The position numbers and the translations under genes were made by a program. Below are positions 22,438-31,962 of a stretch of DNA of 32,000 nucleotides, in pieces. The stretch is from Candidatus Saccharimonadota bacterium (GTDB taxonomy: Bacteria > Patescibacteriota > Gracilibacteria > BD1-5 > UBA2023): the NCBI GenBank assembly GCA_046350815.1, contig JAXLZO010000001.1, positions 870,001 to 902,000 on the forward strand. Reading direction: 5' to 3'. The notes under the pieces are model-generated. The model ran no database searches. It was not told the origin of the DNA and worked only from the letters and a program-made list of their open reading frames with translations. Each line of letters begins with the position of its first letter. Position 1 is the first letter of the stretch.

Positions 22438-22516
22438 GCGGGGGTAACATAAAAGAGTGAGTGTACTAAGGCTTCAACCCTTGGGTGTGCCAGTTCGAAC
22501 CTGGTCCCCCGCTCCA
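22438..22516 (+). tRNA. tRNA-Gly with anticodon UCA (decodes UGA); CCA encoded
   Basis: Hand-folded cloverleaf. Acceptor gcggggg/cccccgc, discriminator T, CCA. D-stem acat/gtgt. Anticodon stem (c)taagg/ccttg(g), loop cttcaac with anticodon tca at 22474-22476. T-arm gccag-ttcgaac-ctggt. G1:C72, C2:G71, G3:C70 and U73 are the bacterial GlyRS identity set and are shared with the neighbouring tRNA-Gly(GCC). Confidence 0.85.
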
Positions 22517-22557: not shown

Positions 22558-22634
22558 GCGGGTATAGCTCAATTGGCTAGAGCGTCGCCTTGCCATGGCG
22601 AAGGTTGTGAGTTCGAACCTCATTACCCGCTCCA
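22558..22634 (+). tRNA. tRNA-Gly (anticodon GCC); CCA encoded
   Basis: gcgggta-ta-gctc-aattggcta-gagc-g-tcgcc-ttGCCat-ggcga-aggtt-gtgag-ttcgaac-ctcat-tacccgc-t-cca forms a canonical cloverleaf. Confidence 0.9.
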
Positions 22635-22996: not shown

Positions 22997-23074
22997 GCAG
23001 TCGTAGCTCAGTTGGATTAGAGCGCCTCCCTGCGAAGGAGGAGGTCATAGGTTCGAGCCCTATCGATTGCACCA
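22997..23074 (+). tRNA. tRNA-Arg (anticodon GCG); CCA encoded
   Basis: gcagtcg-ta-gctc-agttggatta-gagc-g-cctcc-ctGCGaa-ggagg-aggtc-atagg-ttcgagc-cctat-cgattgc-a-cca. Anticodon at 23032-23034, discriminator A73. Confidence 0.85.
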
Positions 23075-24501
23075 TTACATACCTTAAGAGCCTTACTCAA
23101 CTCGAAAACCTCGTTTTTCCTGATGCATAAGGCTTTTTTATTGTCCAAAATGAGTTCGACAGCAAGAATTTTGATTATATCCCTTTTTTTCTCAAAAGAA
23201 GCATTTTTATAATGTTGGACTATATTTATAAGAGGTTCGACAATTTCACTTGCTTCTGTGAGTAAGTCAATATTCACGTCTTGAATGAGCTTCAATGCCT
23301 CATCAATCTCTAAGAGTTCAGCGTGGTTTTCCTCGTTGGACTTTTTGAATTGTTCTGCGGATATTTCTCCATTTGCACGCATATCAAGATAGCCATCCAT
23401 CTTCTTATTGATTGCCTTTTTCTTATTCATGAGGGTCATTCTTTTTCTCTCATTATCTTTGATAATATTCTTCGTTTCTTGGATAGATCCATCGATAATA
23501 ATTTGAGCTATTTCTCTGCTAATCTCAAACTCATCAATACATTGATCGAAATATTCAATGATTTTCTTCTCACTTATTCGCACAGCACCAGCTCATCGCC
23601 CATGGTAATATACTACCTTACTCATTCTTCCAGTTGATTCCGATGCCGAAAGAATATTCCCGTGCATATCTTTAACGAGTCATTTAAATGGGAATTGTTC
23701 TCGTGGTGTTACTGCCTTGAAAACAGTATTTGCCCTATCCCAGAGATTTTTATCAACAATTGCAAAAGCTTTGTTCATAATTACTTCTCATCAGAAATGC
23801 ATGAGTCCATAATATGTCTTTGTGCGAAGTATTTGCTCCACGGATTTTCTCGTAAAATTGTTACTTTTCCATCCATGATCACTCTTGAGAATGTCTTTTG
23901 CTCTCACATGTTCAGCGATCGCATGAGTAGTCCATCACTTATTCACTCGTAGATCAAATATTTCTTGAATCTGTTCTGCTTCGACTGGATCTACTACCCA
24001 AGTATTATTTTCATCTTTTTTGTACCCACGAGGTCATCTGGTAACAAACTGTCCCTTCCTAAATTTTGTAAGCATGCCACGCTTAATATCCTCCGCCAAC
24101 TTCATAACGTAGTGATTCGCAAAAGAGAGGATCACAGCCATCATCATCGTGCTCTCTTGCTTTCCAAAGACTCCATCAGATACGGTATGCACCTTTTGGA
24201 TTTGTCCTCTCTGAACAATCGTCTGGAGCTTTGCCCCGTCGATCGGATTTCGAGAGAGACGATCTAATTTCCAAGCGACAATACCATCAGCCTCTCACTT
24301 TTTACAGCGATCAATCATCGCTTGAAACTTTGGGCGTGTTTCCTCAATCTTTGCAGAGAGGACTTCTTCAAATATCTCAATGACCTCAAATCATTCTCTC
24401 GTACAAAGAGACTCACACTCAAGTCTCTGAGACTCCAGAGAGAGTTGCTGCTTGTCCTCACGATCAGTGGACTTGCGTAGGTAGATAAAAACTCGAAACA
24501 T
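23017..24501 (-). CDS. large serine recombinase (integrase)
   Basis: 494 aa from ATG 24501. N-terminal resolvase catalytic domain MFRVFIYLRKSTDREDKQQLSLESQ...GIVAWKLDRLSRN, then a recombinase domain and C-terminal coiled coil (track ORF 23017-23583). About 8 in-frame TGA. The last 58 nt overlap tRNA-Arg antisense. Confidence 0.9.
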
Positions 24502-25655: not shown

Positions 25656-26408
25656 GGGTCTAAACCAGTTACGGGTTATATTGACGAAGTAACTTTAGCA
25701 CTTCCTTATAAATATCTTTTCATTGAATACGACAATTATATCTGAATTCAGATTCTTTCAAAAAATAGTAGAAGTAGACTTTCTTGATTCCATTGAATTG
25801 AGAGAGTCTTCTTTTGGTATAACTCCAAAATGACTCTATTCAATTAATGTGTTGAGTTCATCTTGCAAATTCATTTGCTCCGTGATGAACACGGTAGTGT
25901 TTCTCATATCCAATATCTACAAGCCCATCATAAGCTCACCATCCATCACTGTTAATCTCAGACTCTTCTATACGAAGTTTTCATCGAATGATTGGCACGA
26001 GAGTCCTTGCTTTTACATCAGGAACTATCTCAGTATATACTTTTCAGTTTCTTTTGAGTAAACCAAAGACTATTGTCTTCATACCAGCTCACCTTCCTCT
26101 CTTTCATCGGACTCTTGTTGGTCAGAAGTAACTCTCATCTATCTCAACATTTCCAGTCCATATTTCATTCTTTTCTCTCTCACAGAGAAAGGCTATCGCC
26201 TTTCTGATATATCTATACCAATCCTGTGTTGTTTTTGGATTGAGACCTGTTAATACCGCTGTTTTATCTGAAGTAAAATCCAGAGAAAAATATTTCACAA
26301 TTTCTCTTATTTTTGCATCTCAAATTCGTGATTTTTTCCTATAGGTAGTTTTACTGATCATAGAGCCAAGTTTATGGGATAATTTATCCTGTCAACTGGT
26401 TTAGACCC
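25656..26408 (-). mobile_element. IS1595-family (IS1016-like) insertion sequence, 753 bp
   Basis: Terminal inverted repeats gggtctaaaccagtt (25656-25670) and aactggtttagaccc (26394-26408), a single DDE transposase ORF, and a 7-bp TSD. Size, GGG termini and TSD length fit the IS1016 group as described in ISfinder. Confidence 0.8.
25669..26361 (-). CDS. IS1595-family DDE transposase (230 aa)
   Basis: ...NVEIDESYF-G-PTRVR-G-KRGR-G-AGMKTIVFGLLKRN-G-KVYTEIV..INSDGW-G-AYDGL...HINGIESFWSYTKRRL..FYYFLKESEFRYN matches the DDE_Tnp_IS1595 pattern. 11 in-frame TGA. The stop TAA 25669-25671 lies inside the left IR. Confidence 0.85.
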
Positions 26409-27981: not shown

Positions 27982-28911
27982 CTAACAAATATGATTCCCA
28001 CACTCACCATATTCCGTCTCAAGCGTAGTATGATGAATATTTTCATCTTCAAGAATATGTCGTATTTGAGTTTTTATGGTTTGTTCATCCTCTCATTTTC
28101 CTAGGGTGATATGTGCAGTAAAAGCATTTTTTGTTGTTGAGAGAGACCATATATGAATATGATGGATATCTTGTACTCCTTCAATCTTAAGAAGCTTGAT
28201 TCTTATATCTTCTGTATCTATCCCATGAGGTACTCCATCAAAATTCATACGAATACTTTGTTTGAGAAGATTCATTACACTTACAAGCATCACTATGGAT
28301 ACAACGATTGATATGATTGGATCGATGACGGTGTATCCTGTGAAATAGATGAGAGCGCCAGCAAAAACAACGCCCAAAGAAACAAGAGCATCCATGAGAA
28401 GGTGCATGTATGCAGACTTGATATTTATATCTTCTTTTCCAGCCTTCATGAGAATTAGACCAGAGAAGCCATTCACCAATATTCCTATGCCTGCAACTAT
28501 CATCATGGTAGTACCAACAGTCTCTACTGGTTGCATCATTCTTCCTATTGCTTCAAATACAAGATAAATTGCCGTGATAATTATGAGAATGGAGTTTATA
28601 AGAGCTGAGAAAATACTCGCTCTTTTATATCCATAGGTAAATCGCTCTGTACTTTTTCTTTGTGAGAGCCACAGTGCGAATCATGAAAGTAAGAGGTTAA
28701 GAATATCCATCACATTGTGACTCGCATCCGATAGCAGTGCAAGTGAGTGAATTTTCACACCAAAGAATGCTTCGACGATTACAAAAGCTATATTGAGAGT
28801 TATTGCGAGTAAGAAGGCAGAAGAAAGATTAGATACTCCGTGAGAATGATCATGATTTTCATGAATATCTCAATATTCGTGATGATGGCTTGTATGATGT
28901 TGATGAGTCAT
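27982..28911 (-). CDS. cation diffusion facilitator (CzcD/ZitB-like divalent metal exporter)
   Basis: 309 aa. His-rich N-terminus MTHQHHTSHHHEY-G-DIHENHDHSH, TM2 motif LLSDASHN, TM5 HLLMDAL, and a C-terminal cytoplasmic domain ..IHHIHIWSLS..AHITL... Reads through TGA 28093 to TAG 27982-27984. Confidence 0.85.
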
Positions 28912-28969: not shown

Positions 28970-30010
28970 CTATTTTTCTATTAAAAACAACCTTACTTCC
29001 TCCTCTCTCCTCTTCAGTAATCCCTTCAGCTGTCTCCCTCCAGCCCCATTCTTCCAATACTCAATCTTCGGTTGTCACTTCTTCACCTTTGCCGTGACTC
29101 GAAGGTAGCATCGCTCACAGTTGTACCGGAGTGATGTAAGAGCTGCAATCTTGTTGTCGGAACTTTTCGGATAGTTCTTACGGATTCTTGCGATGAGCTT
29201 GTCTACAATTTCTTGTAGTCTTCGCTCAGCTTCCTGTTTGGTTATTTTCTCGCCTGCATACGATCGAGTTCCGTATCCAATGGAGTATCCGAGGTGATCC
29301 CAGTAGGCTGTGAGCCTGAGTCCTTCGTATTTTCGGATCATTTCGAGCGCGAGTACTCTCGCAGATGATTCGTTCCCATGTATATTCTCTCAAGCATCCT
29401 TCCGTGGGCTTGAAGGAGCTTTTCATGTTTGTTTAGCCACTTGTAGTTTTCGATCTGATCAAGTGATATTTCACGAATCTTTTCCCACACTCGATTGAGT
29501 TGTAGGAGAATATATATGGTTACTACCAGATTGCACAGAAGGCTTATTGAGAATGTCATCATGAGCATATGCTGTCGTGATTAGTGATGGTCTGGGGGGT
29601 GCGGTGGAAACTGCCCCACCGCTAGCATTCTTTTGTGTGTTTGTACATTCGAATGAGACCAAGCGAATGCATCCATCGAGATCCTGAAGTCTTGAGTCTG
29701 CATTCTGAAGTTTGTCTTCATTCGCTTTCTTGTTCTTGAGGTATTCCTGGTAGAGAGCATCTTGTTTCTTTTGAGCTTCGTCCATTTCTTTCAGGATGGA
29801 TGCTTTGTTGTCCTCGAGGTACTTTTGTTCGACTTCGTAGTCGTGTATGAGTTTTTGTTGCATTGCTTTATACGTCTTTGCTTCATCAACCTTTTCAGAG
29901 AGATGAGAGACATAGAATCAGAGAGCAATCACCAAGATTGCGAAGAGGATCGCATCAAGATTGTTTCTTACTATACCCGAGAGCGTAGATGTGATTTTTG
30001 GAAAATTCAT
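28970..30010 (-). CDS. membrane-anchored GH24 (phage-type) lysozyme: N-terminal TM anchor, coiled coil, Ser/Thr/Pro-rich linker, lysozyme domain
   Basis: With TGA as sense, one frame runs from ATG 30010 (MNFPKITSTLSGIVRNNLDAILFAILVIAL-G-FYVSHL) through track ORFs 29471-29863 and 29075-29341 to TAG 28970-28972. The GH24 motifs ..ARVLALEMIRKYEGLRLTAYWDHLGYSIGYG.. and the post-TGA tail ..EYWKNGAGGRQLKGLLKRREEE lie on both sides of TGA codons. Start is uncertain (30010, 29863, or an internal GTG). Confidence 0.7.
29338..29568 (-). CDS. embedded out-of-frame ORF encoding a single-TM protein (holin-like candidate)
   Basis: MLMMTFSISLLCNLVVTIYILLQLNRVWEKIREI... has one N-terminal TM helix plus a charged tail. 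It lies wholly inside the linker-coding part of the lysozyme ORF. Its TGA (29338-29340) overlaps ATG 29341 as ATGA. Under table 25 it would run on to TAA 29242-29244. Confidence 0.3.
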   Translation of the reverse strand: MLMMTFSISLLCNLVVTIYILLQLNRVWEKIREISLDQIENYKWLNKHEKLLQAHGRMLERIYMGTNHLREYSRSK

Positions 30011-30027: not shown

Positions 30028-30053
30028 AAAAAAAGCCCTACGTGGTGTAGGGC
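30028..30053 (-). terminator. Rho-independent terminator
   Basis: The minus strand reads gcccta-caccacg-tagggc followed by ttttttt. Confidence 0.7.
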
Positions 30054-30793: not shown

Positions 30794-31315
30794 TTACGCA
30801 TGTTTTTGTGTGCTGTAAGTTACGATCTCGGTGCTCGAACGTCGTCGATCTTCTCATCGCATCACAATGACGGTAGCATTATGGAGCACACGAGATACGA
30901 TGCGTTCATTGAGTTTTTCTTTGAGTTCTTTTTCGGTGAGATTGGTGGTGAATATGGTCGGGAGTTTCTTGATCGATCGCTCATCGAGAATATAGGTAAG
31001 ATCTCGGATATATGCATCAGTGACATCGGAAACTCAGATGTCATCGTAGAGAACGAGTGATGAGCGAATGAGCATCTCGAGTGGATACATCTGGATAGAA
31101 CATTGCCATTCATCGGGTTTTCGATGATTCATGAGTCCTGAGGCAATGTATTTTTTGAATTTTGCATCACTGATTTCATACTTGATACTCTCACTGTTGT
31201 ATTTCTCCATGAGCTTCTTGGCAATGTATGTCTTGCCAACCCCTACCGGTCAACAGATCACAAGATTCTTCGAGAAGTCGAAACTCTCAAAAAAATCAGA
31301 AGTAATTTCAGTCAT
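30794..31315 (-). CDS. DnaC/IstB-like AAA+ helicase-loader ATPase
   Basis: 173 aa. Walker A is LVIC-G-PVGVGKTY with the first Gly encoded by TGA 31250-31252. Walker B is LVLYDDI-G-. Sensor region TIFTTN. Frame and ends verified (ATG 31315, TAA 30794-30796). Confidence 0.85.
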
Positions 31316-31323
31316 AGGAAAAA

Positions 31324-31962
31324 TTAGAAGTTGAAATTGTCTCGATCTCTCTCGTGAGATGGTTTTTCTTTTTTTGCGGAACTTTTCTCAAGCCAGTTTT
31401 TTGTAGTAAGAAAAAGAGATTTGTATTTTGTATTTCCCTTATAGTTTTCTATCTGGTCCAAAATCTCATCGATCTGAACTTTTGAAAATCATAGGGTGAT
31501 GAGTTTTTGAAATTCATCCTGCGAAATTGAAAGATGTGCGAATTGCCTATATGTATTAATACTAATATTTATATTAGTATTATTCTTTCTTTCTTTAGTG
31601 GTGGTTATCCGTTGGTTATTTGCTGGTTGCTCGTTTGTTGCTTGGTTGGTTATTTCACCTTGATACAAATCATATTTTTCTATTGTCAGCTTGGTGTAGT
31701 AGCTGGTTGTTTCGCTGGTTATTTCGTTGGTTGATTTTAACCGAGTGAGACACGTGCGAATTTGTTGGTCTGAGAGGCCTGTTTCCTTTGATAATTTGTC
31801 TCGAGAGGTGATAAATTCTCAGCGTTTTATCATTTTTCCTTTCCATTTTTTATCCGCATAATTTGCCTTGAGGAGGATATGGAGAAAGAGTCGCATAGTG
31901 TTAATATCGTCATACCACTCCCACTCAAGCATTTTTCGATGGAGTTTGATATAACCTTCCAT
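31324..31962 (-). CDS. phage replication initiator / DnaD-like replisome organiser
   Basis: 212 aa. MEGYIKLHRKMLEWEWYDDINTMRLFLHILLKANYADKKWKGKMIKR-G-EFITSRDKLSKETGLSDQQIRTCLTRLKSTNEIT is a winged-helix N-domain typical of phage replication proteins. The C-terminal ..SQDEFQKLITL-G-FSKVQIDEILDQIENYKGNTKYKSLFLTTKNWLEK is a DnaD-like motif. TAA at 31324-31326. Confidence 0.8.
31558..31581. repeat. perfect AT-rich palindrome inside the initiator gene
   Basis: aatactaatat-tt-atattagtatt. Confidence 0.85.

Follow-up and report, generated by a model that had tools for sequence, protein, structure and literature searches.

The window considered here, a stretch of 32,000 nucleotides from Candidatus Saccharimonadota bacterium (contig JAXLZO010000001.1, positions 870,001 to 902,000), carries on its minus strand a lysozyme gene of 346 codons (30010..28970) and, out of frame within it, an open reading frame (ORF; 29568..29242) that is very probably a gene of its own. 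The lysozyme gene is read with UGA as glycine and has in-frame TGA at codons 31, 180, 184, 196, 207 and 312. The protein is 100% identical to P0001, the NCBI entry "MAG: lysozyme [Candidatus Gracilibacteria bacterium]", which is located on a 1.28-Mb contig.

The lysozyme begins with a signal-anchor transmembrane (TM) segment at about residues 16-35 (29906..29965), which reaches 1.67 in a 19-residue Kyte-Doolittle window, is kept in all homologues and has K5 and R15 on its N-terminal side. This segment is followed by a helical, coiled-coil-like stalk of residues 36-123 (29642..29905), delineated by alignment conservation and by a low-confidence AlphaFold2 helix at residues 5-123, and ending in the invariant C114 and C122. 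The linker, residues 148-216 (29363..29569), is the dual-coding stretch; it is rich in Ser, Thr, Asn and Pro, hypervariable and indel-rich, and varies among homologues in both sequence and length. In the lysozyme frame it shows no secondary structure in a low-confidence AlphaFold2 model (predicted local distance difference test, pLDDT, 25-37). The full-length model, obtained with nine sequences, has a pLDDT of 45.7 and was used for an outline of secondary structure only.

The GH24 lysozyme domain is situated at residues 217-338 (28997..29362). The match to PF00959 covers residues 227-338 and profile positions 2-125 with 53 bits (cut-off 22.3, E 5.7e-14), and the endolysin family phrog_7 is matched at 4e-21. 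Endolysins of cultured phages align to residues 200-342 only, with ~33% identity. E229, D238 and S243, invariant in nine homologues, presumably correspond to E11, D20 and T26 of T4 lysozyme, by our own reading of the motif EGLRLTAYWDHLGYSIGYG rather than by structural alignment. The order of TM segment, long helix, C114/C122, a "NASGG..S..P...LI.TAYA.D" block, variable linker and GH24 domain is common to eight full-length homologues of 78-46% identity. The product is predicted to be a type-II membrane-anchored muramidase, in which an anchor, a stalk of ~90 residues and a disordered linker of ~70 residues precede the GH24 domain. A first-pass annotation of the window had proposed a membrane-anchored GH24 lysozyme read with UGA as glycine; the 346-codon ORF with its six TGA codons, the PF00959 match and the TM segment confirm this, and all features lie where that annotation had placed them, on the minus strand.

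The same annotation held that the lysozyme domain spans UGA codons. The four upstream TGA codons lie in the linker and not in the domain; codon 312 is a TGA inside the domain, and the invariant residues A217, R218, A221, L222 and E223 are indeed upstream of Met224 (ATG 29341). Met224 is replaced by Leu in two homologues, and the Pfam lysozyme domain starts three residues past it. Because of the invariant upstream residues and the lack of conservation of Met224, the lysin does not begin at ATG 29341, and the invariance within A217-E223 speaks against a domain start at this methionine.

The embedded ORF lies in the +1 frame, with both its start and its stop inside the lysozyme gene. The start codon, ATG 29568, is formed by the invariant Tyr-Ala codons TAT GCT of the lysozyme frame. 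Four codons upstream of it, a +1-frame TAA (29581..29583, minus strand) is found at the same place in all homologues, where it arises from the frame-0 sequence xTA ATC and closes a non-coding +1 open stretch. Under code 11, the ORF would comprise 76 codons (29568..29338), with its codon 77, TGA 29340..29338, overlapping the Met224 codon 29341..29339 in an "ATGA" junction (29338..29341, minus strand). A TGA is present at this junction in all homologues. In the homologous loci (given L numbers where they have to be told apart), the embedded ORFs have between one and four additional in-frame TGAs; that of L014 has one within its hydrophobic segment. Four columns of the embedded-frame alignment show TGA in some sequences and GGA or GGG in others, and GGA is what the window itself has at "LQAH-G-RM" and "YM-G-TNHL" of the embedded protein. 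Because the TGAs sit at GGA/GGG sites, the embedded gene is assigned to code 25, reading through the junction to TAA 29244..29242 and yielding 108 amino acids; the earlier view of an ORF that ends at the ATGA is thereby superseded.

The predicted embedded protein consists of a hydrophobic N-terminus, a charged helix and an acidic tail. Its last 31 residues are encoded by DNA that also specifies the beginning of the GH24 domain, and there most of the constraint comes from the lysozyme frame. The N-terminus has 25 uncharged hydrophobic residues in the window copy, including a 19-mer of mean Kyte-Doolittle 2.12. Eight of the ten embedded ATG-initiated ORFs have 18-25 uncharged hydrophobic residues, followed by sequence in which 25-34% of the residues are charged. 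AlphaFold2, run on the single 76-residue code-11 sequence of the window copy, gives one helix spanning residues 2-75 with a pLDDT of 92.9. A sequencing frameshift was also considered as the cause of the ORF and rejected; eleven independent assemblies agree, and +1 stops flank the ORF.

The reading of both frames depends on the genetic code. The longest ORF in the window increases from 220 amino acids under code 11 to 1167 when TGA is read through. A tRNA with anticodon UCA (22438-22516, plus strand), labelled SeC by ARAGORN, has the acceptor stem GCGGGGG...CCCCCGC, U73 and an encoded CCA. Located ~40 nt downstream is a tRNA-Gly(GCC) (22558-22634, plus strand) with a GCGGG...CCCGC stem, U73 and an encoded CCA. 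The two adjoining tRNAs have G1-C2-G3 and U73 in common, and tRNA(UCA) is the decoder that reads UGA as Gly in code 25. The alignment of the lysozyme gene with its homologues has 24 columns that contain TGA, in which the partner codons encode Gly 31 times and Trp 0 times; Gly is the commonest partner, and the columns include that of the Gly in the catalytic motif EGLRL. The ORF lengths, the tRNA(UCA) features and the occurrence of Gly, never Trp, opposite TGA lead to the assignment of code 25 (UGA=Gly) rather than code 4 from these sequences. Prophages of Gracilibacteria are reported to use code 25 exclusively (PMC10746230). The database homologues P0002-P0009 and P0014-P0042 have mostly been translated with UGA=Trp (code 4) by gene callers, an artefact that appears as "EWLRL" in the catalytic motif, and P0004 has a spurious N-terminal extension of 56 amino acids.

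Constraint on the two frames of the linker

The first-pass annotation argued that two long open frames over ~230 nt are unlikely to coincide by chance. This argument is weak alone, since 14 confident genes of the window contain same-strand alternative-frame ORFs of 76 codons or more at a density of 0.23 per kb with code 11 and 0.9 per kb with code 25, and since 37% of resamplings leave the frame open. In the latter simulation the lysozyme protein was fixed and its synonymous codons were resampled; the +1 frame stayed open in 8-37% of the trials, the highest value being that of the window. The embedded ORF is significant because of comparative evidence only. An internal negative control is provided by a second +1 ORF of 124 codons (code 25; 29581-29955, minus strand), which runs over the lysozyme gene along its N-terminal half and is not interrupted in any homologue. 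With a dN/dS (ratio of nonsynonymous to synonymous substitution rates) of 1.3-2.1 among closely related pairs and a codon-usage score of about -0.35, it is clearly non-coding.

An ORF of 103-123 codons (code 25) with the same ATG is present in 10 of 10 full-length GH24 genes for which DNA is available, down to 46% protein identity, and in L011 the ORF at this site has 78 codons. Summed over 28 pairs, the pairwise BLOSUM score of the linker is 1993 in frame +1, 1578 in frame 0 and 1084 in frame +2. For L005 and L006, 30 of 61 linker residues are identical in frame +1 and 16 of 61 in frame 0. The dN/dS values, obtained per frame by the Nei-Gojobori method for linker and flanks, are 0.09-0.49 for frame +1 and 0.63-1.58 for frame 0 in the linker; in the flanks they are 0.01-0.21 for frame 0 and 1.2-2.9 for frame +1 in all but the two most diverged pairs.

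The phase of the substitutions was compared by Fisher's test in two independent, ungapped close pairs. The differences between L003 and L014 at frame-0 codon positions 1/2/3 number 9/1/0 in the linker and 21/12/79 in the rest of the gene (p = 3.4e-6), and those between L007 and L008 number 14/1/3 and 27/12/70, respectively (p = 3.2e-5). Frame-0 synonymous sites in the linker are thus nearly frozen, with 0 and 3 changes against ~12 expected at the flank rate, and changes at +1 third positions proceed at the neutral rate seen in the flanks. The nearly frozen synonymous sites of frame 0 cannot be put down to selection on that frame alone. The log-odds of codon usage set frame +2 apart (-0.53 to -0.74) and do not separate frames 0 and +1, both of which are near 0 in the linker; outside the linker, frame +1 scores about -0.3.

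The hydrophobic N-terminus of the +1 product has a hydropathy of 1.9-3.1 in seven of the eight genes simulated and of 0.79 in L005; resampling of the frame-0 protein gives means of -0.9 to +0.8 with a standard deviation of 0.6. When the embedded protein is fixed instead, the lysozyme frame is free of TAA and TAG with a probability of 0.004-0.22 per sequence, which amounts to ~4e-9 over five lineages. The lysozyme frame is open in every sequence despite many indels, and frame +2 carries 3-7 stops. The check on selection thus favors the +1 frame by its dN/dS in the linker and finds the lysozyme frame to be kept open as well. These comparisons of sequences show that both frames are maintained, that purifying selection acts on the +1 frame and that UGA is read as sense in both. 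Within the overlap it is the embedded frame that carries the amino-acid constraint, and the lysozyme frame is held only to being hydrophilic and free of TAA and TAG. Four of the six lysozyme-frame UGAs fall in the overlap, and the dual-coding arrangement is impossible under the standard code.

The module also travels. In L011 (protein P0011), the same anchor, stalk and linker precede a different C-terminal domain with no PF00959 match, and the +1 ORF is identical to that of L005 at 36 of 62 positions. The C-terminal ~140 residues of P0011 (L011 5001-6035), which take the place of GH24, are Cys-rich and match neither Pfam nor PHROGs; they may constitute a novel cell-wall hydrolase domain. Opposite the 3' end of the P0011 gene, a gene of 169 amino acids has been called in antisense (L011 5900-6409, minus strand); its product has a hydrophobic N-terminus (Kyte-Doolittle 2.3), and the call may be spurious.

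The embedded proteins fall into four types, namely those of the window, L001 and L013, of L003 and L014, of L007 and L008, and of L005, L011, L006 and L009. These types are discordant with the phylogeny of the gene flanks. L001 and L007 differ by an N-terminal dN of 0.003, and only about half of their embedded residues are identical; L005 combines flanks of the window type with an embedded protein of the L006 type. Since the embedded types do not follow the relatedness of the flanks, the sequences suggest recombination within the linker. Three distant loci with the same architecture differ in the +1 frame. L053 encodes 19 uncharged hydrophobic residues and a charged helix with no ATG, GTG or TTG before them, L012 has a +1 ORF of 62 codons without a TM segment, and L054 has nine +1 stops in the linker. 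The ORF is therefore neither universal nor automatic. Searches of JGI metagenomes added three close loci; no further relatives with DNA were found in GTDB genomes, by protein patterns and a degenerate DNA pattern, or in IMG/VR.

Prophage setting and proposed function

An integrated phage-like element takes up the right third of the window; all of its genes are on the minus strand. By rising coordinate, the genes encode a recombinase, SSB, an IS1595 transposase, a CDF cation-efflux protein, the lysozyme, a 122-amino-acid protein, and DnaC-like and DnaD-like proteins. The large serine recombinase (24501..23017, minus strand) abuts a tRNA-Arg; the tRNA and recombinase end (22997-23074, plus strand; 23017-24501, minus strand) probably marks the left border of the element and its attachment site. 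Over its last residues, the recombinase ORF may be reading through the tRNA in antisense. The DnaC-like (31315..30794) and DnaD-like (31962..31324) helicase loaders, both on the minus strand, belong to the replication module of the prophage. The IS1595-family transposase (25669-26361) and the CDF cation-efflux transporter (27982-28911), also on the minus strand, separate the SSB gene from that of the lysozyme. SSB directly adjoins the lysozyme in the related phages L006 and L011, which suggests that the two genes are insertions or cargo.

The retrievable lysozyme homologues are all located on phage-like contigs. The neighbors are ERF, Gp157 and a methylase in L005, M78, YopX, terminase and tail tube in L006, and ERF and SSB in L011. 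Among the genes flanking the lysozyme, no TM protein was found at any locus examined. Between the 122-amino-acid gene and the lysozyme start lies a terminator-like GC-rich hairpin with a run of seven T (30035..30053, minus strand; a consensus match only), from which it may be that the lysozyme gene is transcribed apart from the replication genes. A promoter scan gave no more matches than chance.

We put at roughly 0.6 the probability of the whole statement that a conserved gene lies within the lysozyme gene and probably encodes a lysis partner. The partner role is suggested because no other TM protein occurs near the lysozyme and because the ORF travels with the anchor-linker module despite the domain swap; the narrower assignment, judged from sequence, to a lysis partner of the holin or regulator type falls a little short of an even chance. 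Translation of the embedded ORF would begin within the lysozyme mRNA, at the internal ATG, with UGA 29340..29338 read as Gly and termination at TAA 29244..29242. The product would insert in the membrane and act with the tethered, Sec-exported lysozyme, either serving as a trigger in the manner of a holin or pinholin or regulating how the lysozyme is released or activated. With two stop codons only, such dual coding would be easier to attain. The holin function named in the first-pass annotation is plausible: the ORF lies inside the lysozyme gene, and most copies have a hydrophobic segment. No holin family was matched, and a clear TM segment is lacking in two of the eleven copies. A more far-reaching and tentative proposal is that the embedded protein founds an undescribed family of single-pass lysis proteins of phages that infect code-25 Candidate Phyla Radiation (CPR) bacteria, overprinted in the linker and eased by the loss of the UGA stop, with L054 and L053 as stages before or after its birth.

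Several observations weigh against a lysis partner. The embedded N-termini of L005 and L011 are amphipathic rather than hydrophobic (Kyte-Doolittle 0.6-0.8), and a membrane-spanning role is thus not universal among the eleven embedded proteins. The net charge of the 15 residues past the hydrophobic run ranges from -2 to +3, which leaves the topology ambiguous. No significant match to a holin, spanin or other family was obtained in Pfam or PHROGs, and a profile search with the embedded proteins in a collection of 5.8 billion proteins retrieved no called protein; since family homology is lacking, architecture and context are what the functional assignment draws on. Shine-Dalgarno-like motifs are rare in the genome (4 of 20 genes) and uninformative for the embedded start. 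The lysozyme gene sits among replication genes and not at the end of a late operon, so the enzyme may not be the lysis endolysin. With a transposase and a CDF transporter beside the lysozyme, the window prophage may also be decaying.

The first alternative is that the embedded protein is real and not a hole-former, being instead a regulator or partner (an antiholin-like inhibitor, or an assembly or immunity factor) that pairs with the lysozyme stalk. We regard this as unlikely, though with several observations in its favor. Both proteins consist of a hydrophobic N-terminus and a long helix; the embedded proteins of L006 and L009 have sub-threshold coiled-coil matches (TolA_bind_tri, 5e-5); those of L005 and L011 keep the conserved helical core without a true TM segment; and an anchored lysozyme exported by Sec needs no holin for export. 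Against this stand the uncharged hydrophobic stretches of most embedded proteins, which are typical of a membrane span, and the lack of similarity to known antiholins in the searches.

Less probable still is the suggestion that the lysozyme is not a lysis enzyme at all, but a prophage-borne (moron) surface-tethered muramidase that serves an epibiotic or predatory cell or superinfection control, with the embedded gene as an accessory. Its place in an early replication module (SSB, DnaC-like, DnaD-like) rather than a late lysis cassette, the separate transcription suggested by the hairpin, and the long stalk and flexible linker, which hold the catalytic domain far from the membrane, would fit such a role. 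The GH24 domain, however, is closest to phage endolysins according to the phrog_7 match, and the homologues come from phage-like contigs on which, though most are short, no other endolysin candidate was seen.

That the +1 ORF is an untranslated chance frame, conserved through constraint at the nucleotide level or shared ancestry, is strongly disfavored and very improbable. Alternative frames of this length are common when TAA and TAG are the only stops, the upstream +1 frame is likewise open in all homologues yet non-coding, and none of the databases searched holds a similar protein. Such a frame does not explain why the substitutions of two independent pairs are shifted towards +1 third positions, why frame-0 synonymous sites are nearly frozen, or why, between diverged pairs and despite the swap of the catalytic domain, conservation is higher for the +1 protein than for its frame-0 counterpart. 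The interchange of TGA with GGA and the hydrophobic N-terminus, which frame-0 composition leaves unexplained, argue in the same direction.

The first-pass annotation also offered a relic, in which a standard-code cassette of holin-TGA/ATG-lysin became fused once UGA was read as Gly. An ATGA (or TTGA) junction is found in all homologues, and the start of the Pfam domain so close to Met224 would suit a free-standing lysin. The junction TGA, however, is dictated by the lysozyme sequence Glu-[Met/Leu]-Ile (GAx [A/T]TG ATC), and with further TGAs at Gly-equivalent sites in the embedded ORFs of the homologues, the ATGA does not act as a functional stop/start overlap. Met224 is not conserved, being Leu in two lineages, there are invariant residues upstream of it within positions 217-223, the linker maintains an open lysozyme frame, and L011 has exchanged the domain. 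Moreover, the "holin" frame differs from that of the anchor module, a layout that simple fusion of adjacent genes cannot give. Searches of viral, genome and metagenome collections for standard-code relatives, in which a TM gene ends in TGA over the ATG of a free-standing GH24 gene, found none, and we consider the relic hardly credible.

Equally hard to credit is a frameshifted isoform, initiated at the internal ATG and shifted by -1 into the lysozyme frame to give a short TM-helix-GH24 protein, for although the +1 constraint fades where the lysozyme domain begins and the product would be similar to known signal-anchored endolysins, the +1 ORF possesses a conserved stop of its own, ends in L011 without a downstream GH24 domain, and shows no slippery heptamer on a reading of the junction that did not extend to a systematic search.

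Comparison with known lysis systems

It is rare, in bacteria and double-stranded DNA phages, for both frames of a same-strand overlap to be demonstrably maintained, and annotation pipelines drop such genes. With its sharp switch of phase at the borders of the overlap, this gene is well suited to testing methods for the detection of overprinting. For phages of Gracilibacteria and Absconditabacteria, the embedded protein would be the first concrete lysis-partner candidate. Once UGA is no longer a stop, a third of the stops that normally block long overlaps are gone, and it is suggested as a general and testable point that stop-codon reassignment relaxes the constraints on dual coding. We also note that expression of the lysozyme in a standard-code host, or its recoding, would unknowingly destroy or alter the second gene.

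Among the nearest precedents is hol187 of Staphylococcus aureus phage 187, reportedly described by Loessner et al. in 1999 as a small membrane-protein gene inside the endolysin gene ply187 in another frame. The proposal that a separate gene is embedded here in the same manner is supported by the conservation, the dN/dS values and the substitution phase. In both cases, a small membrane-protein gene wholly within the endolysin gene takes the place of a separate adjacent holin gene. Ply187 is a cytoplasmic CHAP/glucosaminidase enzyme of a standard-code Firmicutes phage. In contrast, the host gene here encodes a GH24 enzyme that is anchored in the membrane and belongs to a CPR prophage with code 25. 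The ORF embedded in it is located in a disordered linker, is twice as long as hol187, and encodes one hydrophobic segment and a long helix. The support for it comes from comparative selection data, not from expression data.

In the Rz/Rz1 pair of phage lambda (PMC6139136), too, a +1 gene lies within another gene, whose product is a type-II membrane protein with a coiled-coil ectodomain. The lysozyme's anchor module has weak matches to Rz-like spanin PHROGs (E 0.004 to 6e-4); they are below significance and probably reflect the composition of a TM segment plus coiled coil. This module is fused to a lysozyme, in contrast to Rz. An o-spanin was rejected as the identity of the embedded proteins, which have no lipobox or conserved Cys and in most cases no Cys in the N-terminal segment.

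The lysin gene of Lactococcus phage phi-vML3 (c2-type) is reported to give a lysozyme-like lysin and a smaller holin-like protein (PMC3111421). According to the summary in that source, the likeness lies in two lysis products from an overlapping coding sequence. Lysins of c2-type lactococcal phages are among the closest cultured-phage matches to the GH24 domain described here, with ~32-34% identity. Only the catalytic domain is related; the c2-type lysins have no membrane anchor, stalk or long linker.

A muramidase that is exported by Sec, remains tethered and is accompanied by an overlapping gene for a small membrane protein is known from the signal-anchor-release (SAR) endolysin and pinholin systems, such as Lyz/LydD of P1, where lydD overlaps the 3' end of lyz, and R/S of phage 21 (PMC9025707). 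In SAR endolysins the SAR domain directly precedes the catalytic domain. This is in contrast to the lysozyme of the window, in which ~190 residues of stalk and linker separate the anchor (residues 16-35) from GH24, and a SAR endolysin identity was rejected for this reason. The partner gene differs from those of the P1 and phage 21 pinholins in being fully embedded, and its product has one predicted TM segment rather than two. The existence of the embedded gene is well supported; the out-of-frame embedding of a lysis gene is already known, and it is the present setting and the sequence of the product that are new.

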